Positions 8,091 to 64,000 of a stretch of 64,000 nucleotides of DNA are shown here, piece after piece. The stretch covers positions 434,001-498,000 of the forward strand of contig JASTWF010000069.1 in assembly GCA_030390025.1 (NCBI GenBank). The letters run 5' to 3'. The notes beneath the pieces were generated by a model. The model had not been told where the DNA came from, made no database searches, and saw only the letters and a program-made list of their open reading frames with translations. A program made the position numbers and the translations under genes. Each line of letters begins with the position of its first letter. Position 1 is the first letter of the stretch. The DNA is from Squalus acanthias. Its lineage: Eukaryota.

Positions 8091-8878
8091 CACTGCCGGA
8101 GGGGCAGTACTGAGGGAGCACTGCAAAAATGAGGCAACTTATTCGTTCCACTGCTTTTACATCCAGTAGATTGTGCTCCATTATGAAGACAGTTTTTATA
8201 TGGACGGGTCCTTAGCCTGATGAACAATGCCCTACCAGGAGGGTCCGGCTAGATACGATGGGTGTCGGGTTGACACTCCACTCCCATCGGGCACCAGAAC
8301 CTCGCTGGATGTCAACCCAGTATTCAGAGACTGGAATTCTCGCCTCCGCTTACCAGGGTAGAGATAACAAGTAGGGATTGGAATAAAGAGGTAAAAAGGT
8401 GTCTGGTAAAAAAGCCACAGCCATGAGGAGGTTCAATGTGTCTCAGATACTGGAACAAGCCCAGCAGCAACAAATGGAGGGTTCAATGTGTCCTGGACAT
8501 TGAAGTAAACTCAATCGCAATGATGAGGAAGGTCGAGTTGATCCTGGAGAATGCTTGCAATCAGAAGTAGTGTGTCTAGAGGCCACACGGACAGTCAAAC
8601 ATGATCCAAATCATAGCAACATGAGGAGAGACCCCCAACCAACAGTCCAATGTATCTCGGAAAGGTAATTCCCATTTTCAGTTTTCACACTTTACACACA
8701 GCAAGGTCCCACAAACACCACTGTGATAAATGACCAGTTAATCTGTTTTGGATGTTGCTTGAGGGATAAATATTGGCCTGAGGACACCAGGGAGATCTCC
8801 CCTGTTCTTCTTCGAAATGAAGGACTTCCACGCGAGGGGCCTCGGTTTCACATCTCATCTGAAAGACGGCACCTTCAA

Positions 8879-10624
8879 CAGTGCGGCCCTGCCTCAGTAC
8901 TGCCCCTCCGACAGTGCAGCGTTCCCTCAGTACTGCCCCTCCGACAGTGTGGCGCTCCCTCAGTACTGCCCCTCCGACAGTGCGGCGCTCCCTCAGTACT
9001 GCCCCTCCGACAATGCGGCGTTCCCTCAGTACTGCCCCTCCGACAGTGCAGCGCTCCCTCAGTACTGCCACTCCGACAGTGCGGCGCTCCCTCACTACTG
9101 CCCCTCCGACAGTGCGCCGTTCCCTCAGTACTGCCCCTCCAGTGCGGCACTCCCTCAGTACTGCCCCTCCGACAGTGCGGCGCTCCCTCAGTACTGCCCC
9201 TCCGACAGTGCGGCGCTCCCTCAGTACTGCCACTCCGACAGTGCGGCGCTCCCTCAGTACTGCCCCTCCGACAGTGCTGCGCTCCCTCAGTACTGCCCCT
9301 CCGACAGTGCGGCGCTCCCTCAGTACTGCCCCTCCGACAGTGCGGCGCACCCTCAGTACTGCCCCTCCGACAGTGCGGCGCTCCCTCAGTACTGCCCCTC
9401 CGACAGTGCGGCGCTCCCTCAGTACTGCCCCTCCGACAGTGCGGCACTCCCTCAGTACTGCCCCTCCGACAGTCCGGCGCTCCCTCAGTACTGCCCCTCC
9501 GACAGTGCGGCGCTCCCTCAGTACTGCCCCTCCGACAGTGCGGCGCTCCCTCAGTACTGCCCCTCCGACAGTGCGGCGCTCCCTCAGTACTGCCACTCCG
9601 ACAGTGCAACGCTCCCTCAGTACCGCCCTCCGACAGTTCGGCGCTCCCTCAGTACTGCCCCTCCGACAGTGCTGCGCTCCCTCAGTACTGCCCCTCCAAC
9701 AGTGCGGCGCTCCCTCAGTACTGCCCCTCCGACAGTGCGGCGCTCCCTCAGTACTGCCCCTCCGACAGTGCAGCGCTCCCTCAGTACTGCCACTCCGACA
9801 GTGCGGCGCTCCCTCACTACTGCCCCTCCGACAGTGCGCCGTTCCCTCAGTACTGCCCCTCCAGTGCGGCACTCCCTCAGTACTGCCCCTCCGACAGTGC
9901 GGCGCTCCCTCAGTACTGCCCCTCCGACAGTGCGGCGCTCCCTCAGTACTGCCACTCCGACAGTGCGGCGCTCCCTCAGTACTGCCCCTCCGACAGTGCG
10001 GCGCTCCCTCAGTACTGCCCCTCCGACAGTGCGGCGCTCCCTCAGTACTGCCCCTCCGACAGTGCGGCGCTCCCTCAGTACTGCCCCTCCGACAGTGCGG
10101 CGCTCCCTCAGTACTGCCCCTCCGACAGTGCGGCGCTCCCTCAGTACTGCCCCTCCGACAGTGCGGCACTCCCTCAGTACTGCCCCTCCGACAGTCCGGC
10201 GCTCCCTCAGTACTGCCCCTCCGACAGTGCGGCGCTCCCTCAGTACTGCCCCTCCGACAGTGCGGCGCTCCCTCAGTACTGCCCCTCCGACAGTGCGGCG
10301 CTCCCTCAGTACTGCCACTCCGACAGTGCAACACTCCCTCAGTACCGCCCTCCGACAGTTCGGCGCTCCCTCAGTACTGCCCCTCCGACAGTGCTGCGCT
10401 CCCTCAGTACTGCCCCTCCAACAGTGCGGCGCTCCCTCAGTACTGCCCCTCCGACAGTGCGGCGCTCCCTCGGTACCGCCCCTCCGACAGTGCGGCGCTC
10501 CCTCGGTACCGCCCCTCCGACAGTGCGGCACTCCCTCAGTACTGCCCCTCTGACAGTGCGGCGCTCCCTCTGTACCGCCCCTCCGACAGTGCAGCTGTCC
10601 CTCAGTACTGCCCCTCCGACAGTG
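8879..10624 (-). repeat. 33-bp minisatellite (~53 units) attached to the DeuSINE body at ~8700-8880
   Basis: Unit cagtactgcccctccgacagtgcggcgctccct. Confidence 0.95.
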
Positions 10625-10655
10625 CATCGCTCCCATCGACAAACTTGTGCAAAAC
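10625..10655 (-). pseudogene. 31-bp IgV exon remnant (VLHKFVDGSD) between two minisatellites
   Basis: Reverse complement gttttgcacaagtttgtcgatgggagcgatg; same 3' breakpoint as the other copies. Confidence 0.75.
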
Positions 10656-11680
10656 AAGAGCTGTGTCCCCAACCCCCGGGTACAAGAGCTGTGTCCCCCC
10701 AACCCCTGGGTACAAGAGCTGTGTCCCCCCAACACCCGGGTACAAGAGCTGTGTCCCCCCAACCCCCCGGGTACAAAAGCTGTGTCCCCAACCCCCCGGG
10801 TACAAGAGCTGTGTCCCCAACCCCCGGGTACAAGAGCTGTGTCGCCCAACCCCCCGGGTACAAGAGCTGTGCCCCCAACCGCCGGGTACAAGTGCTGTGT
10901 CTCCAACCCCCGGGTACAGGAGCCGTGTCCCCCCAACCCCCGGGTACAGGAGCCGTGTCCCCCCAACCCCCGGGTACAAGAGCTGTGTCCCCCCAACCCC
11001 CGGGTACAAGAGCTGTGTCCCCAACCCCCGGGTACAAGAGCTGTGCCCCCAACCCCCCGGGTACAAGAGCTGTGTCTCCCCCAACCCCCGGGTACAAGAG
11101 CTGTGTCCCCAAGCCCCCGGGTACAGAGCTGTGTCTCCCAACCCCCGGGTACAAGAGCTGTGTCCCCCCAACCCCCGGGTACAAGAGCTGTGTCTCCCAA
11201 CCCCCGGGTACAAGAGCTGTGTCTCCAACCCCCGGGTACAAGAGCCGTGTCCCCCCAACCCCCGGGTACAGGAGCCGTGTCCCCAACCCCCGGGTACAGG
11301 AGCTGTGTCCCCCCAACCCCCGGGTACAAGAGCTGTGTCCCCAACCCCCGGGTACAAGAGCTGTGTCTCCAACCCCCCGGGTACAGGAGCTGTGTCCCCC
11401 AACCCCCCGGGTACAAGAGCTGTGTCTCCAACCCCCGGGTACAAGAGCTGTGTCTCCAACCCCCCGGGTACAGGAGCTGTGTCCCCAACCCCCCGGGTAC
11501 AAGAGCTGTGTCCCCAACCCCCCGGGTACAAGAGCTGTGTCCCCAACCCCCGGGTACAAGAGCTGTGTCCCCAACCCCCGGGTACAAGAGCTGTGTCCCC
11601 AACCCCCGGGTACAAGAGCTGTGTCTCCAACCCCCGGGTACAAGAGCTGTGTCCCCAACCCCCGGGTACAAGAGCTGTGC
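10656..11680. repeat. ~28-31-bp minisatellite
   Basis: Unit aagagctgtgtccccaacccccgggtac with variable C runs. Confidence 0.95.
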
Positions 11681-11794
11681 TCATCCCAGGGGCTGTGATT
11701 GGCCACCGGGTTGTGTGTCAGAACTGAACCATGTATTTCACCACACTGTAAATTCTGTCGTGTGGGCGGCAAAGCCACTGTTTAACCATTTCCC

Positions 11795-47593: not shown

Positions 47594-49729
47594 TAGGTTT
47601 CACTCTCAAACACGTGTAGGTGTGAATTTCAGTGCAGGAAGCGCACAGACCATAATAATCAGTTAAATATTAACGTCCCTGTGTAATCCAGTTCTGCTCC
47701 TTTAGATTTTCACTTTATTCCCCGTCAGTTGTGTCTGGGAACCAGGAACAAAAGATAGCCCAAAATTTGCATTAAAATCCGAGTCATCCAGTTTCGGGAT
47801 TTATCACCAGTGAGATTATCCGTCTGACCCTCTCCGTATTCCACATTTAAAATTAAATGTTCAGCCCTAAAACCGAGAGGCTTTTCCGCCTGTTCTGGGA
47901 GTGAATTGAAGGAGTGTAAAATGGTGAATTTAGCAACAATGTTTGATGGTAAATCATGATTTAGCAATCAAGGGATAGGTTGTCTGAGAAACGGATCTCA
48001 ATGAGAAGAGAAATCCCTCCGAGTGCCTCAGACACGGCTCTCAGGAAACATCACCATCTTACACCCACACAGTGTGCAAGTAATTCTTCACCAATCCAAT
48101 ACACAGGGTGTGAGCAATGGTTTTAACCCTAACCTGTGTTATAATTTGCCCTCACTTGTTAGAAAACCAGGAATGAAAGCTCCTGTCCCCACTGCACCCT
48201 CCAATGTGGATTATTTCCACCTTCACCACGATAGAAGTCTTCAGAAAAATAAATATCGGCCGATTAAAAATAACGATTGAACAATTGAAAAACTCGACAT
48301 TTCACAAACAAATCGACTCACACGAGCAGCGTCAGGGAGGGAATCATCAGTGACTCTTGCAATCTCTAAAAGGATTCATTTTAATCCTCACAAACACATC
48401 ACATTCAATATCATCAGTCAATTTACAATATATTCATCCCCTTGTGGGAAATACAGGTTTAAACAGACCAGAACAATCGAATAATTAGCAACACAAAACA
48501 CTTCCACTTGACCTGATGTTTTCAGCTACAGTCAAAGCTTTGTCTTGAAGCAATTCTAGTGGCGAGATGTGATGGGCCAATTTCCCATCTACAATTTCAG
48601 TTTACACTTTAATTGGGCGCAAATCTTCTTTGCACTTAATGTTGTTAAAAATGCAGAGAAACCAATTGCCAACCAGCCTGTTCCTGGTGGCTTGTACTGT
48701 ACACATCAGATCATAAATTAGAATAGAAACCGCCCAGATTGTGTCGGAAATCCGCCCTCAGAAAACCCTGTGATCTTTTTAAACTCCCCTATCAATACAT
48801 GTGATGCAATAAATTGATATCCTCCGAAAGAGCGGGGGCTTTAAAACAAATCCGGTTAAAGAAGTTCAGCTAGAGACCCTTTCCAGAAATTAAACTTATC
48901 CATCCATTCATTTTCAAGCAGTTTCTTTTGAACAGAGGACGGGTTAGCTCGCTGTGTTTGACGAGGTGGAGAGAGAGAGAGTACTTCATGGCAAAGAGTT
49001 TTTGAATCTGAATTTACTGCACATTCTCCTCCTGAAGATGACTTGTGGGGATCCTGTTCACAATGTCCAGAGAACTCTCGGATTAAACTGCCTCTGCACC
49101 CGGGGCTGGGCCCTGTCCTGGAATGAACAGTAATTGACATCAAAGGTCAGGCCCGGATCCACTGGATCCACAGGACAGGTGAGCCCACCGCATCAACCTG
49201 GTCTAAAATGTACAGGACCCCCAGCTAAAGTTAGCCAACCGATTCCCCAACCTTACTCGCCTATTCCCCACAAACATTCATAACTCACCCAGAACATTTG
49301 CCCGGGACAGTCGAGTCTCCGGCTCAGTCTGACACTGGTACAAGGTGTCTGCTGTGGAATATGACTCCTCCCAGGCTTCTCGCTTTCATTACCATGACTC
49401 ATCCTGTAGCAGGTGAGAAACATGTCTTCTACGTCCCCCCCTCTCACCGCCTGCTCATGTACCACACACAGACCGGAGTTCAAGGGTTGATCACCACAGC
49501 CAAAAATTTCCACATCCCCGAAAAAGAAAGTAAGACTCTTATTTTACACAGTTCTACTTTCAAACAGATGAAGTTTATCTCTATCCAAAAGAGTAAAAGC
49601 CAATCTCACTCTTTTAACTGACAAATGCTGCAGGCACTCCGAGAGAACTGCCTGATAGCGCAGTCCCTAATTATTCAGAGGAATATGATCAGGAAATTCC
49701 CAACCACAATCCTGAGCATACTGTCACTT

Positions 49730-51175
49730 CCAGTGCGGCGCTCCCTCAGTACTGCCCCTCCGACAGTGCTGCAATCCCTCAGTACTGCCCCTCCGACAGT
49801 GCGACGCTCCCTCAGTACTGCCCCTCCGACAGTGCGGCGCTCCCTCAGTACTGCCCCTCCGACAGTGCGGCGCTCCCTCAGTACTGCCCCTCCAACAGTG
49901 CAGCGCTCCCTCAGTACTGCCCCTCCGACAGTGCAGCACTCCCTCAGTATTGCCCCTCCGACATAGCAGCACTCCCTCAGTACTGCCACTCCGACAGTGC
50001 TGCGCTCCCTCAGTACTGCCCCTCCGACAGTGCAGCGCTCCCTCAGTACTGCCCCTCCGACAGTGCAGCACTCCCTCAGTACTGCCGCTCCGACAGTGCA
50101 GCACCTCCTCAGTACTGCCCCTCTGACAGTGCGGCGCTCCCTCAGTACTGGCCATCCGACAGTGCGGCGCTCCCTCGGTACTGCCCCTCCGACAGTGCGG
50201 CGCTCCCTCAGTACTGCCCCTCCGACAGACGGCGCTCCCTCAGTACTGCCCCTATGACAGTGCGGCGCTCCCTCAGTACTGCCCCTCCGACAGTGCGGCG
50301 CTCCCTCAGTACTACCCCTCCGACAGTGCGGCGCTCCCTCAGTACTGCCCCTCCGACAGTGCGGCGCTCCCTCAGTACTGGCCATCCGACAGACGGCGCT
50401 CCCTCAATCCTGCCCCTCCGACAGTGCGGCGCTCCCTCGGTACTGCCCCTCCGACAGTGCGGCACTCCCTCATTACTGGCCATCCGACAGTGCAGTACAC
50501 CCTCAGTACTGCCCCTCTGATAGCGTGGCGCTCCCTCAGAACTGCCCCTCCGACAGTGCAGCGCTCCCTCCGTACTGCCCCTCTGACAGTGCAGCGCTCC
50601 CTCAGTACTGCCCCTCTGACAGTGCGGCACTCCCTCAGTACTGCCCCTCTGACAGTGCGGCGCTCCCTCAGTACTACCCCTCCGACAGTGCTGCGCTCCC
50701 TCAGTATTGCCCCTCTGACAGTGCGGCGCTCCCTCAGTCCTACCCCTCCGACAGTGCTGCGCTCCCTCAGTACTGCCCATCCGACAGTGCGGCGCTCCCT
50801 CAGTACTACCCCTCCGACAGTGCGGCGCTCCCTCAGTACTGCCCCTCCAACAGTGCGGCGCTCCCTCAGTACTGCCCCTCCGACAGTGCAGCGCTCCCTC
50901 AGTACTGCCCCTCCGACAGTGCTGCACTCCCTCAGTACTGCCCCTCCGACAGTGCAGCGCTCCCTCAGTACTGCCCCTCCGACAGTGCAGCACTCCCTCA
51001 GTACTGCCCCTCCGACAGTGCAGCACTCCCTCAGTACTGTCCCTCCGACAGTGCAGCAGCTCCCTCAGTACTGCCCCTCCGACAGTGCAGCACTCCCTCA
51101 GTACTGCCCCTCCGACAGTGCAGCACTCCCTCAGTACTGCCCCTCCGACAGTGTAGTGCTCCCTCAGTACTGGCA
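49730..51175 (-). repeat. 33-bp minisatellite (~44 units)
   Basis: Same unit; shares variant units (e.g. tactggccatccgac) with the 43170 array. Confidence 0.95.
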
Positions 51176-51197
51176 CTGGGAAGTGTCGACCTGGTTT

Positions 51198-51533
51198 ATG
51201 ACCACGATGATTCTGGAGACCCTGGCTGCGGAGTACTGCAGGGCTCCACCTGACCTATCACGGCATCTGAATCGCATCTTCAGCAAGCCGATGGTTTGCT
51301 CGATAATGGATCTGGTGGAAATGTGGCTGGAGTTGTAGCGCTCCTCAGCTTCATTGGATGGCCTCCTCAACAGCGTCATTAGCCACGTCTTCAGGGGATA
51401 GCCCGTGTCTCCAAGTAGCCATCCGAAAAGTTGGTCTGGCGGACTGAAGAGCGGAGGCACACCAGACTGGCGCAGGATGAAGGAGTCATGGCAACTGCCA
51501 GGGTACTTGGTGCAAACATGCAAAATTTCCTTA
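51198..51533 (-). mobile_element. Harbinger (HARBI1-like, DDE_Tnp_4) transposase fragment
   Basis: [11 protein letters not shown]…[10 protein letters not shown]…[25 protein letters not shown]. Confidence 0.85.
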
Positions 51534-53513: not shown

Positions 53514-54289
53514 TGACCCTCCGAGATCTCTGCTCTCCTCCAATTCTGGCCTCTTGCGCATCCCCCGATTTTAATCGCTACACCATTGGTGGCCGTGCCT
53601 TCAGCTGCCTGGGCCCCAAGCTCTGGAATTCCCTCCCTAAACCTCTCCGCCTCTCTTTTCACCTTTAAGACGCTCCTTAAAACCTACCTCTTCGGCCAAG
53701 TTTTTGGTCACCTGTCCTAATATCTCCTTATGTGGCTCGGTGTCAAATTTAGTCTGATAATTGCTCCTGTGCAGCGCCTTGGGACGTTTTACTACGTTAA
53801 AGGCACTATATAAATGGAAGTTGTTGTTGTTGTTTTGGTTCCTGTATTAATGGTGCTCAGCCAGGAGATGGCGGTGTTGTCCAGCTCAACGGGCCAATGG
53901 TAAACAGAGCACCAGCACCACCCGGTGGACGAAGGGCGGTATTGCAGGGACACCCTGGGGCAACATTAAAGAAAGACTCGCATTTCTCCAGCGCCTTTCA
54001 CCACCTCAGGACGTCCCAAAGCACTTCACAGCCAATGAAGTACCTTTTTTGAAGTGCAGTCACTGTTGTAATGTAGGAAACGCGGCAGCCAATTTGTGCA
54101 CAGCAAGCTCCCACAAACAGCAATGTGATAATGACCGGATAATCTGTTTTAGTGATGTTGATTGAGGGATAAATATTGGCCCCAGGACACCGGGGAGAAC
54201 TCGCCTGCTCTTCTTCCAATAGTGGCCGTGGGATCTTTTAGGTCCACCTGAGAGGGCAGACGGGGCCTCGGTTTAAACTCTGTTAGAAA

Positions 54290-54988
54290 CTGCCCCTCCG
54301 TCAGTGCATCGCTCCCTCAGTACTGCCCCTCCGTCAGTGCATCGCTCCCTCAGTACTGCCCCTCCGTCAGTGCGGCGCTCCCTCAGTACTGCCCCTCCGA
54401 CAGTGCGGCGCTCCCTCAGTTCTGCCCCTCCGACAGTGCATCGCTCCCTCAGTACTGCCCCTCCGACAGTGCGGCGCTCCCTCAGTACTGCCCCTCCGAC
54501 AGTGCAGCGCTCCCTCAGTACTGCCCCTCCGACAGTGCGGCGCTCCCTCAGTACTGCCCCTCCGACAGTGCAGCGCTCCCTCAGTACTGCCCCTCCGACA
54601 GTGCGGCGCTCCCTCAGTACTGCCCCTCCGACAGTGCGGCGCTCCCTCAGTACTGCCCCTCGACAGTGCGGCGCTCCCTCAGTACTGCCCCTCCGACAGT
54701 GCGGCGCTCCCTCAGTACTGCCCCTCCGTCAGTGCATCGCTCCCTCAGTACTGCCCCTCCGACAGTGCGGCGCTCCCTCAGTACTGCCCCTCCGACAGTG
54801 CGGCGCTCCCTCAGTACTGCCCCTCGACAGTGCGGCGCTCCCTCAGTACTGCCCCTCCGACAGTGCGGCGCTCCCTCAGTACTGCCCCTCCGACAGTGCG
54901 GCGCTCCCTCAGTACTGCCCCTCCGACAGTGCGGCGCTCCCTCAGTACTGCCCCTCCGACAGTGCGGTCGCTCCCTCAGTACTGCCCC
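54290..54988 (-). repeat. 33-bp minisatellite attached to DeuSINE body (~53968-54290)
   Basis: Same unit. Confidence 0.95.
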
Positions 54989-55002
54989 CCACCCACAGGA
55001 TT

Positions 55003-57220: not shown

Positions 57221-58570
57221 GGGAGTGCTCAATGGGTTACACAGCTAAAGGTGGTCCTGAGACTGGGTTTGGACACAGTGTGTGACAGTAATGCTGAGAT
57301 ATAATACACAGGGAGTGCTCAATGGGTTACACAGCGAAAGGTGGTCCTGAGACTGGGTTTGGACACAGTGTGTGACAGTAATGCTGAGATATAATACACA
57401 GGGAGTGATCAATGGGTTACACAGCTAAAGATGGTCCTGAGACTGGGTTTGGACACAGTGTGTGACAGTAATGCTGTGATATAATACACAGGGAGTGATC
57501 AATGGGTTACACAGCTAAAGGTGGTCCTGAGACTGGGTTTGGACACAGTGTGTGACAGTAATGTTGAGATATAATACACAGGGAGTGATCAATGGGTTAC
57601 ACAGCTGTTAGATTCGAATTTGGAGAAACTCTAGACGGAGACGGAATTGAGGACAAGTTCAGAATTTATTAAAATAAACAAAAGACTTGTGCACAAGGGA
57701 GAGCCACTCAGCTTCCTCAAGCTAGGGGCGCACTCTCTGAGGAACAAGTAACGGTTCATTCAATTTATACATTTCTATAAGCACCGCCCACTTACTACAG
57801 AATGGGACGTACACGTACAAACAGTGTCACTACAGTTACTCTCTATTGGTTATATGGTTAGTCACTCAACTGTCGGGCCCTCCCCTTGAACCCTGACCAT
57901 GCCAGTCACAGATGTTGGTTGCCTCATCCTACTCCCCAAATTCTTGCTGTTATCTCTTCCTTTGCGGGCATAGTTTATAGTTTGAGAAAACATATTTTAT
58001 CCCTAGCTGTCGGACAGAGCGGGGTGGCTCAAGGCCGTAATGGCTTGGATGCTCAGTGACTGGAACCGTGTTGGTCATTAATTGCTCCCTTATCTCTTGG
58101 GAGACCAGGTTCGAATAGTAGATGTACCCCCCGTGCCTGGAACTGTGTTGGTTGTTAATTGCTCCCTTATCTCTTGGGAGGCCAGGCTGTGCTTTGACAA
58201 TGGCTCTACTGAGGTTGTGAATACATATATCCCAAGGTTTGATAAGGGGAGGGAGGCACCTTCCAGTCTACAAATATGCCTTAGTTAGCTAAACCTACTA
58301 TCTGAGTAAAGTAGAGGGTTAATGTAGTCAAGTATCCCAGCATTCTTTGGGAACAAGCAGGATCCTTCAGTAGTAGTCAAGTATCCCAGAGTTCTTTGGG
58401 AACAAGCTGGATCCTTCACAGCTAAAGGCGGTCCTGAGACTGGGTTTGGACACAGTGTGTGACAGTAATGCTGAGATATAATACACGGAGTGCTCAATGG
58501 GTTACACAGCTAAAGGTGGTCCTGGATGTTCCTGAGACTGAGCTTGGACACAGTAATGCTGCGATATAAT
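57221..58570. repeat. 90-bp tandem repeat interrupted by the solo LTR
   Basis: Unit starts at 57221, 57311, 57401, 57491 and 57581; resumes at 58419. Confidence 0.9.
57606..58418 (-). mobile_element. Solo LTR (813 bp), unrelated in sequence to the 59219 LTR
   Basis: TG…CA termini; 4-bp TSD CAGC (57602-57605, 58419-58422); interrupts a 90-bp repeat unit. Minus-strand CCAAT (~57845), TATA-like (~57778), AATAAA (~57668) and U3 direct repeats. Confidence 0.85.
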
Positions 58571-59218: not shown

Positions 59219-60995
59219 TGTAAGGGGTTCGCGGCGTGCTTGTATCGCAGACGGTGCTGGTGCGGGGTTCGGCCTTCGTTGCCTAATACTGTTGCTTGCT
59301 CTGGTCTCCGGCCAGCCTTGTTGCAATAAGCACCTGTGAGTGGTTCGACCCACTCGCCCTTACGGTTCTAACACTGGACTTCTGTGCGAGAGCAGTAATG
59401 CAGAGAAAAACTCAAATAGAACCGGTTGAATAGTACGAAATGGAAATCTTTATTGCATAGCGTCTAAAATCATGAAGTACATGTCATAGGCACAAATTAA
59501 CGATAGTACAAGTATACATACATTCATAAAGCTTGGTCTATGGTAATGAAGAACGCACGGCACATCGTAAAAAGGGGAACACATTATACTTTATCCTTAA
59601 CAAAACCACCCTCCCTTATCAATACCTACACTACATCTAGATTTGTAGGATCGGGAAACATGCTCACCACTCGTGATACTTCGGAGAATTTTAAAGTGAG
59701 GCACTCGGCTCGTTTCGCTGCAGCGCCTGACTGTCACGTGTTTGGAGGGGTCTCTGTACCCCACTTGTTTATCTTCGCTGCTGCGGCAAGCAGGCCAGAC
59801 CGTCTTTTGTCATGAAGAACTCGGCAGAACTCGGACACGTTTGTAAAATTCAAAGAGTCTTCCTGTACCGACACCGGTTGTCGGTAGGATTCAAAGAAGA
59901 GTCTTTGACCGGTTCGTGCAATAACCTGTAGAGTTCAAGAAGTGGGTCTTATATTTTCGGGCGCGGTCGGGGTTTACTGACCGCGGCGGCACGTGGATTC
60001 TTCTTCTTCTCGTCTCGTTTCGTGTTGTCTCTTCGGGCCTTCGGGTCAGACACCGTTTACCGACTCTCGGGATGGTGCACCCGGTCACTTACCTTTGTCG
60101 AGGCGGCTCGTTCCGTTTGAGCTCCACCCAACATTCGAATAACCGACCAGTACGGCTAAAAGTCAAGAGTCAACAATATCCAGCCCTCAAGAAGAGCTTC
60201 AGCAAGGGTCCGCCGAGAGATAAGAGTCGATTCAAGCAAATAAGAGCCAAATCAAGAGGCCGATGGACGTTTGTTCACTATAGTTATAGTGCTGTGTTCC
60301 CTTATCTCCCGCCCAAATCTTAATGTTTGTCCTTTGTGAAATATTGGCGCTCAAAACTCCCAGCATGGGGCGATTCTTGTCTTTAACAGGTTTCGGTAGC
60401 ACCTGAAACTGGCCAACTACCCGTTAATGTTTTCCCCATTGTTGACCCAGCCAGGATCGTATGAATCGTCTCCCTGACTGGTTTTGGGGGCCCCCGAATA
60501 CTTGTTTAATCACCCAAGAATGGCTCTCTCATTGTAGAGCCGTGGGGGTATTTGTGTATTGATGTGTCTGGATGGGCCTTCGATTGCCCAGTACAATGAA
60601 CCTTACTTGTGCATGGAAAACGATTCCAGCACTCATATCTTTTGCTATTGTTTCGAATGCAAACAGGTTGCATCCTGTCTTTAACAGTGTTTATCGAGTA
60701 TGATCCCGTCTTATATTGAAATGTTTATTCGAACGCCATCTTGTCTGCCCACTGAAATTCTGGAAGCTTCTGCCACGATGCGCGGTGGCCATTTTACAGG
60801 CTTCTGTGTCCTTTTTAATCATGACAGCATTTCGTTTAAATAAACTGATCAAACGAATCTGCTTCTCTCTCGTTATTTTGAATCGCGATAATTGCGAAAC
60901 TTTACAGTCCCTCCTGTTGATGCGAATAACTCCGCTTATCGTATCAATTAAAAGTGGTGGTGAGCAAAATTATCCCGATTCTCCACATCCAAACA
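59219..60995 (-). mobile_element. Putative 3' LTR (~1.8 kb) of the env-bearing element
   Basis: Minus strand ends …ccccttaCA at 59219, where similarity to the uninterrupted paralog (20777-21190) stops. A purine run aagttaagggag precedes TG at 60995 (this boundary is less certain). AATAAA near 59450; CCAAT- and TATA-like motifs near 60345 and 60285. Confidence 0.6.
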
Positions 60996-61322: not shown

Positions 61323-63644
61323 TCACGCGCACGTAACGTTCTCTCCACTCTCCTGCTTTGTGAGGTGTTTGCCTCTCTTGCAGTGTATGACCAAGAGGTA
61401 CACTACAATTATAACTTGGCACACAACCAAAATGTGGGAGGCTATCCTGATCCATGAAGGCACTTCAATATTAGTGAACAGATCCCACCACGGTGGGATC
61501 ACTATGTCCAGAATTTCTGTCCCTATCTCGACAGTCTTTTGTTCCAGGGTGTAAAAATGTTTTTGTGATACCGCGACGGCTTTCAAAAGCTTGGTGAGGT
61601 GTTCAGGGAGAGGGGGAATGATGTATCCGAAATGCGCGACGAATCGCTGCAAGTCGGTGAAATTCTCTTTTACTGTAAGATGAACAGTGGATGGTTCAGG
61701 GATCGGGACAATTCGCTGTTGTGCCACTTGAACTTCAGCCCTGGGTTTAAAACAGAAACTGCTGTCACTCACCGGACACCGGCTGTGGTTTCCATGCTGG
61801 TAGTGTTGCGCTGCAGTGGTAACGCAATATGTTCCACCCCCTATGTATGCCACCTGCGGAGGCACATGATCTTGTGTCATTGCCTCCATGGTGCAATTCA
61901 TGGGCTTCGCGCCAGCCGTTCTGAACCCGCATTGTGGTGTTAAAAAGGCATTCAAGTGCTGGGGACACAGTATTATGTGTGCTCCCCAGCCACGACAACC
62001 CGATAGGTCGGTACCTGTCATCGTTTGCTCCCAGCGGATGACGTAAGGTGGGACCGCTGCGTAGCGAACGTGGGCTCCCCCCTGAATGACACCAATGTTC
62101 TCTACCCGATACACCGGGGCGGGCTTTGCTGTGTCGCCCAAAACCGGCATACGTAGTACTATACCCATGATGGTATGGTTTGACCGTCCGCAGTCCACGG
62201 GGACTGGGTATGCCTCTGAGGCTAGCCTGAGCTGGCACGGGCTTAATGCGTTCTGGAAAGGGTGGAGCGCCTGCAGGTGTTTGTTACTTATCCAGGACGG
62301 GACCAAACCTTGTTTTAAATCCTCCAAATTACTGCGGCCCTCGCCCAGTAACCACGCCCCGTATAGTACGCACACCTCGTTCTGCGCAGCTTGATCGGAT
62401 GCATTCTGATCTTCCCTGATCAGGGCATTTACCGTTCTCGCATGTTTCTCCAGCTCTGCTATAATCTCCTTTAAGTGTAGTGTCATGGCCTGGTCCTCAT
62501 GTAACTCGGACCCTACTACCTTGTTTTCGCTTGTGAGGATGCTTTTTAATTGTGTTTTTAAACCATTTATCTGGGTCTGCAGCTCCACGTTGTCTAGAGC
62601 GTTGACCACAGATGTTCCTGTATTAAAGGCAGTGAACATATCGTTCACAACACCCCTTCTTTGTCTCCCCACCTGACCCAAAACTTCGTGTGGTGTGGTG
62701 TACAAGCTTGTTTTGTCAATCTCTGCAAAATCAAACTCGTAGAATTGTCTGAACATGTTTGTCAACAGGACCTGGTACAATTGTTCCGTCTCTTTGGGGC
62801 ACCACTCTGGCAAACGCACCTCGGTGAGATTTAAAATCACCGAGGCCACCGCGTAATGTACCCCTTGAAATAGTATCTGGTCTGTTGGGACCAATACCAA
62901 ACCATTCCCGGGCCCCTTAGTGGTTTTAGGGCACCCTTCCTCCTGAGCCAAAACCACCGGAATCGTGGGCGGAGACTTGCGTGGGCGCGTGATGAGTTCA
63001 GTGGCGTTTACCGGGATCGGGGAGTATGGAGCTCCGCACCCCTTTGTGCTGACATCCCACCTCATCCCTTTCCCGTTATCCTGCCACTGGTGTACGAAAA
63101 ATATGGATATACCCTTGGGGCAAATGTACTTCGATCCCCACATACAAACATATATTCCCTCATCCGGTTCCCACCATTTGTCCCAACAGACTTTCAATTG
63201 TCCGTTAGTCCCCGTAATTGTCCGATGGGTATTGTTACCCAATCGCTCCCACTCGACCGAGGAATTTCTCATATTCTTGCTCAATTTCCGTCACCACCAC
63301 CATCGGCTCAATGGGACCTTCCCATTGCATGTCAAACAAATCCTTTTGCCGACGGTGACGCTGATCCTGGGTGCAATGATCCTCACTCTGGGGCACATCA
63401 AAGAAGTCTCTTTGTAGGCAAATCCGGATGCGCTGGAGTATTCCGTCGAATTCGTTCCCAGCCATCCCGGCCACCTTCCCTTGTGGAAATAAGTGGCGGT
63501 CTCCTCAGCCTTTCGCTCCCCGGTCCCATCCGTCGCGATGGGGCCCGTGACCCCGGAGCAACCAAACACAACGACATCCTTGGTGAGGCCCCGATAGGCC
63601 AATCCATATCCGATCGTTGCGAGCACTATCAGAATCCGTTCCAT
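61323..63644 (-). CDS. env: Endogenous retroviral envelope, class I fusion protein (lokiretrovirus/Mononegavirales-F-like), 773 codons with one in-frame TGA at 63293-63291
   Basis: ORFs 63291..63644 and 61323..63284 are in the same frame (…tgg tgg tgg TGA cgg aaa ttg…). Signal peptide MERILIVLATIGYGLA; furin site RQRR then a fusion-peptide-like GVVNDMFTAFNTGTSVVN; heptad repeat; Cys-rich region; C-terminal TM (ILVVCQVIIVVYLLVIHC) and short tail. Candidate splice acceptor ttttatctgatcacAG (AG 63658-63657) just upstream of the ATG. Confidence 0.85.
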
Positions 63645-63862: not shown

Positions 63863-64000
63863 TTATGAACTTATAATCCTAAACTTAAACTGTACAGCGC
63901 CGCCCGTTCCCAGGGCACCCTCCCTGGCTAGCGCATCCGCCTGCTGGTTGCCCTCCCCGCGGGGTTCTGTGGAGGAGTGAGCCTTCACCTTATGGATGAA
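63863..64000 (-). CDS. pol: C-terminal end of retroviral-type RNase H (pol), runs off the window
   Basis: Manual translation from 64000: FIHKVKAHSSTEPRGEGNQQADALAREGALGTGGAVQFKFRIISS*, containing the KVKAH…GN..AD.LA RNase H motif. Confidence 0.8.
   Translation of the reverse strand, partial: FIHKVKAHSSTEPRGEGNQQADALAREGALGTGGAVQFKFRIISS

Follow-up and report, generated by a model that had tools for sequence, protein, structure and literature searches.

A broken env gene in Squalus acanthias predicts an F-type fusogen with a probable Ig-like head in a family of endogenous retroviruses probably related to snakehead retrovirus

The window analysed here is a stretch of 64,000 nucleotides of the Squalus acanthias genome (GenBank assembly GCA_030390025.1, contig JASTWF010000069.1, forward-strand positions 434,001 to 498,000). 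Close to its right end lies an endogenous retrovirus (ERV) whose env gene, on the minus strand, is the subject of this report. We read this gene as the broken env of an abundant ERV family that is likely related to snakehead retrovirus (SnRV; clade Huo, class III), predicted to specify an F-type fusogen with a probable immunoglobulin (Ig)-like head that is likely to be an attachment module. The probability of this reading as a whole is put at about 0.68. Translation of the frame from 63644 to 61326, with an X placed at the break, gives 773 residues that can be divided as listed below (LTR, long terminal repeat; pLDDT, predicted local distance difference test; HR, heptad repeat).

61323..63644, minus strand: env gene of the provirus, 773 codons as present, a defective copy
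63579..63644, minus strand: predicted signal peptide, residues 1-22 (hydropathy peak 4-22; modelled helix 2-16)
63090..63560, minus strand: N-terminal head, residues 29-185, a probable Ig-like beta-sandwich (profile, alignment, model, fold match)
63090-63392, minus strand: canonical Cys106/Trp/Cys167 core within the head, residues 85-185
63291..63293, minus strand: in-frame TGA at codon 118, breaking the window copy within the Ig-like head
62940..63089, minus strand: Pro/Thr-rich linker, residues 186-235, predicted disordered (sequence; pLDDT <50)
62667..62939, minus strand: F2-like part of the fusion core, residues 236-326, from the conserved Cys238 motif (model, fold match, family alignment)
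62655..62666, minus strand: furin-type cleavage site RQRR, residues 327-330 (motif)
62589..62654, minus strand: putative fusion peptide, residues 331-352 (location after the cleavage site)
62310..62588, minus strand: long helices, residues 353-445, HRA/HRC-like (model)
61695..62309, minus strand: Cys-rich beta domains I/II of the F fold, residues 446-650 (model, mostly pLDDT 80-96)
61470..61694, minus strand: HRB-like stalk, residues 651-725 (model)
61386..61445, minus strand: transmembrane helix, residues 734-753 (hydropathy), followed by a short tail and the stop at 61323-61325

The best structural matches of the Env model were the F proteins of paramyxoviruses and pneumoviruses (PF00523), at 7-15% identity, in agreement with the F-type fusion subunit of the original prediction. 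The model contains the core beta sheet, the helical bundle and the domains I and II common to F proteins, features by which class Ib is recognized, and the predicted fold of Env is almost certainly of the F type. The predicted Envs of two walleye epsilonretroviruses (walleye dermal sarcoma virus, WDSV, and walleye epidermal hyperplasia virus 1, WEHV1) matched the model as well, with E values of 7e-11 and 2.5e-8; the second-ranked match in the structure search was a 928-aa BFVD entry, A0A384ZVF2. Sequence searches of Pfam and PDB with env returned no F or Ig family over the cut-off, and weak ArfGAP matches were dismissed as a two-Cys coincidence. Single-sequence structure prediction of Env gave a pLDDT of 33 and was of no use. 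The ectodomain C-terminal to the furin site spans about 400 residues and is rich in cysteines (10 between residues 425 and 631, 11 including one just outside), as had been noted from the sequence alone. Equally in line with that description, neither a CX6CC motif nor an LQNR-type immunosuppressive core occurs in the 773-residue read-through, which sets it apart from gamma-type Env. The putative fusion peptide is only mildly hydrophobic (mean Kyte-Doolittle value 0.32).

The evidence for the Ig-like fold of the head comes from several directions. The motif RISVTVGKRICLTC occupies residues 93-106, the Trp lies at 115-117 and DEGIYVC at 161-167, giving a spacing of 61 between Cys106 and Cys167, exactly the arrangement first pointed out for this N-terminal part. 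In a profile alignment spanning 71 columns, the B-strand Cys, the C-strand Trp and the D-x-G-x-Y-x-C motif coincide in position with those of host I-set domains; the hhalign probability for head versus host I-set was 7%. Pfam Ig_3 matched seven of nine members of the head alignment at E<=1, the best value (0.0027) lying under the curated cut-off, and the best score of the head against the Pfam Ig families was 18.6 bits versus a curated cut-off of 30. On a host-Ig profile the head of a sister copy scored 3.9 bits versus a maximum of 2.9 among 300 shuffles, and the head of the window copy (2.6 bits) did not rise above this control. Structural matches of the head included LAG3, CD8 and TREM-1, with titin and obscurin equally good and identity to every match between 8 and 17%. 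Three N-glycosylation sequons are present, and residues 46-91, modelled with low confidence, may represent an inserted loop. Together, the Ig_3 matches, the in-register alignment and the fold match make an Ig-like fold of the head, as originally proposed, quite probable. No host donor gene was found for it, and its capture from a host is unproven.

An Env search of 1.84 billion representatives recovered 45 relatives. Among the 15 env relatives that were looked up, the named sources are sharks, a skate, frogs and coelacanth. Identities within the family range from 16 to 76%; since the closest named relatives are from skate (76%) and sawshark (73%), the host is a cartilaginous fish, as the original prediction had supposed. 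The core from the Cys238 motif onward is common to all relatives. The heads of different clades show no BLAST similarity except in one frog pair, as judged from the 13 rows, out of 17, in which the start of the core can be read; three of these 13 are cut by stops and uninformative. Two proteins with a named start (P0053 and P0064) are headless, and a headed and a headless Env are sisters with a support of 97/100. Among subfamilies 50-62% identical, the head is conserved under purifying selection. Related families thus retain the core but carry different heads, which identifies the head as an exchangeable module. The head of P0052, sister of the headless P0053, is V-set-like, lacks the first Ig cysteine and by eye resembles the CD2 family; it scores 10.6 bits on the host-Ig profile and may represent an independent and later capture. 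Another related Env is named 'Ig-like domain-containing' in UniRef. In other shark families (P0031, P0041, P0048) the same core bears a third type of head, which is rich in cysteines and has no Ig score. The genome carries several more F-type env families (L012-L041, L058-L069). Of 10 further env loci, 8 have an RT (reverse transcriptase) upstream, and the motif is LPQG in all six in which it could be read; thus, the F-type core accompanies an LPQG-type RT across families. In four database gene models (P0003, P0004, P0030, P0055) env pieces are fused to Niban, zinc-finger, cadherin and F-box sequences; these are probably gene-calling artefacts, exonisation being the alternative.

Beyond the window the provirus continues with RNase H, tether, RT, protease and a gag with a zinc knuckle. 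The RT motif reads LPQGF; in the alignment of Wang and Han 2020 (PMC7947760), so far as its accessible part goes, PFG occupies this position in 24 of 24 lokiretrovirus rows and LPQG in 15 of 15 retrovirus rows. Hand counting over 138 residues gave 70 identities with SnRV (51%), about 51 with Loki-Lch (37%) and about 48 with murine leukaemia virus (35%). By motifs and this count, SnRV has the closest RT among the reference rows compared. The 20 closest RTs comprise 18 with LPQG, none with PFG and two without a readable motif; an RT scan of viral contigs found nothing. The primer binding site is complementary to a genomic tRNA-Arg(UCG), and SnRV is said to use a tRNA-Arg primer. At loci L042-L053 the primer site lies just inside the 5' LTR and is overlapped by the first ATG of the gag frame; six of nine readable loci match tRNA-Arg(UCG), one of them with a mismatch, and the other three presumably match a second tRNA-Arg(UCG) isodecoder. 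The tRNA-Arg pattern has 424 matches in the genome, and long tandem arrays of 1.6-kb period carry tRNA-Arg(UCG) and tRNA-Ser(GCU) genes (G000:C26, 39.0-42.2 Mb; L055-L057). In 13 of 13 loci gag and pro-pol share one frame with TGA-CTAG between them (copies of the junction lie at L011:2770-2782, minus strand, L006 and L042-L053). This sequence serves as a type II readthrough signal in alphaviruses and mammalian genes, and it is not among the retroviral readthrough contexts in the accessible text of PMC13517186. From these sequence features the family is very probably related to SnRV and not to the lokiretroviruses. ERVs of this kind form clade Huo in class III (Xu 2018, PMC6001957) and are known from the elephant shark as lineage I CmiERV (Han 2015, PMC4422223), according to the accessible parts of both papers.

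The window copy itself is defective. Besides the internal TGA it has an earlier end, at codon 774, the same-frame end lying at 784 in 6 of the 10 closest copies, and the integrase-bearing stretch of about 2.1 kb is absent between RNase H and env. The sequence observations behind the original prediction hold; its title did not mention the break at codon 118 or the early end of this copy. The remaining parts of the provirus are:

59219..60906, minus strand: 3' LTR, 1,688 nt, TG...CA, with a short purine tract ahead of it at about 60908-60916
L011:4605-6245, outside the window: 5' LTR partner, 1,641 nt
63863..64000, minus strand: end of the RNase H coding stretch

Dating by LTR divergence was rejected, as the two LTRs show 91 differences over 1,628 aligned sites and no target-site duplication was seen; for the same reasons the two ends probably derive from different integrations. 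In the 3.7-Gb genome a first look gave 4,227 env candidates, a figure not to be read as copy number, of which 40 were scored; all 40 were 97-100% identical. Among the 10 closest copies, four run without a stop across 783 codons and one more across 779. Pairwise dN/dS (the ratio of nonsynonymous to synonymous substitution rates) among 7 of the 10, in pairs that are not independent, was 0.14 for env, 0.07-0.11 for the fusion core and 0.26-0.30 for head and linker. Clearly, env was under constraint while the family spread, and this purifying selection implies spread via particles using Env. Copies vary in internal deletions and insertions and yet retain env: L006 is without most of pol, L090 has an insert of about 1.25 kb in pol with a second RT match, and L092 carries about 0.8 kb of additional sequence separating pol from env. 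Contigs spanning env and LTR occur in four sequencing runs guessed to be of RNA, which attests presence only. In the same four runs the left flank continues at 59220 into other sequence, as at an empty site; because the flank unit is repeated 12 times on the contig, this junction does not support an insertion polymorphism.

For the family, as opposed to the window copy, we propose the following course of events. The signal peptide would direct the precursor to the endoplasmic reticulum, Env would trimerise as F proteins do, and furin would cut at the RQRR motif. According to the model, the surface part would retain the head and its flexible linker together with an F2-like segment that remains integrated in the fusion core. 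The head would then bind a cell-surface protein, a step given slightly better than even odds. By analogy with paramyxovirus F and foamy Env, binding and/or low pH may free the helices, allowing the peptide exposed by the cut to enter the target membrane and the stalk to fold back.

For the head, attachment is by a small measure the favoured role: it lies at the N terminus, is joined by a flexible linker, varies more than the core does and changes from one family to another, which suits an attachment module best. Alternatively, the core might bind cells alone and the head divert immune recognition as a decoy, shield Env with its glycans or hold the prefusion trimer as a cap. The headless relatives, the sequons and the immune receptors among the top structural matches would all suit such a role; against it, position and linker recall the N-terminal attachment modules of coronavirus spike, the head is under purifying selection across subfamilies, and no immune ligand is singled out since titin and obscurin match equally well. 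We regard this explanation as rather unlikely. It is improbable that the head is a viral beta-sandwich merely resembling the Ig superfamily (IgSF), with no host capture. Such an origin would agree with the low identity to all structural matches, the 7% hhalign value and the want of a donor gene; against it stand the in-register Cys/Trp/D-x-G-x-Y-x-C pattern, the P0052 score and the relative annotated as Ig-like.

Two further explanations concern the lineage. The original prediction held that the element was a loki-like virus of cartilaginous fish whose Env had gained an Ig domain. The F-like Env with its furin site speaks for it, the start of the core resembles the Loki-Xtr Env by eye, and dual RNase H (tether plus RNase H) is present as in lokiretroviruses. 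Dual RNase H is common to all retroviruses, however, and therefore not diagnostic, and the RT carries the canonical retroviral signature, with SnRV well ahead of Loki-Lch in identity and PFG in none of its closest relatives. The lokiretroviral assignment is thus largely refuted and appears highly improbable; that lokiretroviruses were unreported from chondrichthyans did hold, none of 6 genomes being marked as holding them in the accessible part of PMC7947760. It is also conceivable that the element is recombinant, with an SnRV-type gag-pol and an env donated by either a lokiretrovirus or an RNA virus, in which case the F-type Env would be uninformative on the ancestral retroviral Env. Env-Pol recombination is common in anamniote ERVs, SnRV-related Pol also occurring with gamma-type Env (bioRxiv 2021.11.23.469661, accessible text), and no named SnRV Env was returned by the Env search. 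Yet the Env family is old and wide, the LPQG-type RT recurs upstream of its members, and the Envs of walleye epsilonretroviruses and foamy viruses are F-like as well, so that a recombinant lineage seems unlikely. The reading of the gene as an SnRV-related env with an F-type core and a probable Ig-like head is therefore preferred.

On this reading, F-type (class Ib) Env reaches beyond foamy viruses and lokiretroviruses into a clade of canonical retroviruses that are not foamy viruses, and the origin of retroviral env becomes testable by a joint phylogeny of RT and Env core. We did not find described for retroviral Env a layout in which a compact fusion core takes interchangeable heads, one of which is Ig-like. 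Because the family is both young and abundant, selection acting on the head and on the core is directly measurable. No F-type or Ig-headed Env was reported for SnRV-related ERVs in the accessible text of the literature surveyed (including PMC9040795, PMC12440569, PMC10435555, PMC12583693, PMC4977317, PMC11521997, PMC13709493, bioRxiv 2023.10.26.564294 and bioRxiv 2021.11.23.469661, the last of which, in its accessible text, screened anamniotes for gamma- and beta-type Env only). A broader idea, which we advance tentatively and at less than even odds, is that SnRV-related retroviruses of sharks, amphibians and coelacanth possess a large unrecognised Env class, in which host-derived IgSF domains were grafted more than once onto an F-type core as exchangeable receptor-binding heads, and that the F fold is ancestral to retroviral Env, gamma- and beta-type Envs being a later replacement. 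The ancestral F fold is suggested because foamy, walleye epsilonretroviral and lokiretroviral Envs are also of the F type. If true, this would contradict the view that lokiretroviruses and canonical retroviruses gained env independently.

Elsewhere in the window, a stretch of about 0.8 kb starting with TG (57606-58415) interrupts a 90-bp tandem repeat and may be a solo LTR from a different family. Much of the window is occupied by large arrays of a 33-bp repeat, together with fragments of RT like that of long interspersed nuclear elements (8700-11700, 49600-51200 and 54250-55000).

Comparison with known systems brings out what the shark element shares with each. SnRV too has an in-frame stop between gag and pro, but in the context UAG-GGC instead of the UGA-CUAG of the shark element (PMC13517186, accessible text), whose LTR measures about 1.65 kb. 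Lokiretrovirus Env has in common with it a signal peptide, furin site, fusion peptide, coiled coil, F-like ectodomain and lack of CX6CC; in Loki-Xtr, the single loki Env compared, the signal peptide leads directly to the core without a head, and the loki RT belongs to another lineage (both from the accessible part of PMC7947760). Walleye epsilonretrovirus Envs match the shark Env model in structure but are much longer (1,159-1,317 aa) and go with a class I RT; they are described as neither gamma- nor beta-type in the accessible text of bioRxiv 2021.11.23.469661. The F proteins of paramyxoviruses and pneumoviruses work with a separate attachment protein and are without an N-terminal Ig head, whereas the shark Env carries a head of its own. 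In foamy virus Env, also class Ib, the receptor-binding domain is a novel fold between the subunits, while the shark module is N-terminal, small and probably Ig-like; the shark pol, moreover, is predicted from sequence to be expressed by readthrough, unlike that of foamy virus. Both arrangements are in keeping with F as a minimal scaffold that accepts receptor-binding modules N-terminally or between subunits (Fernandez 2024, PMC11468914, accessible text, as for the foamy virus domain).
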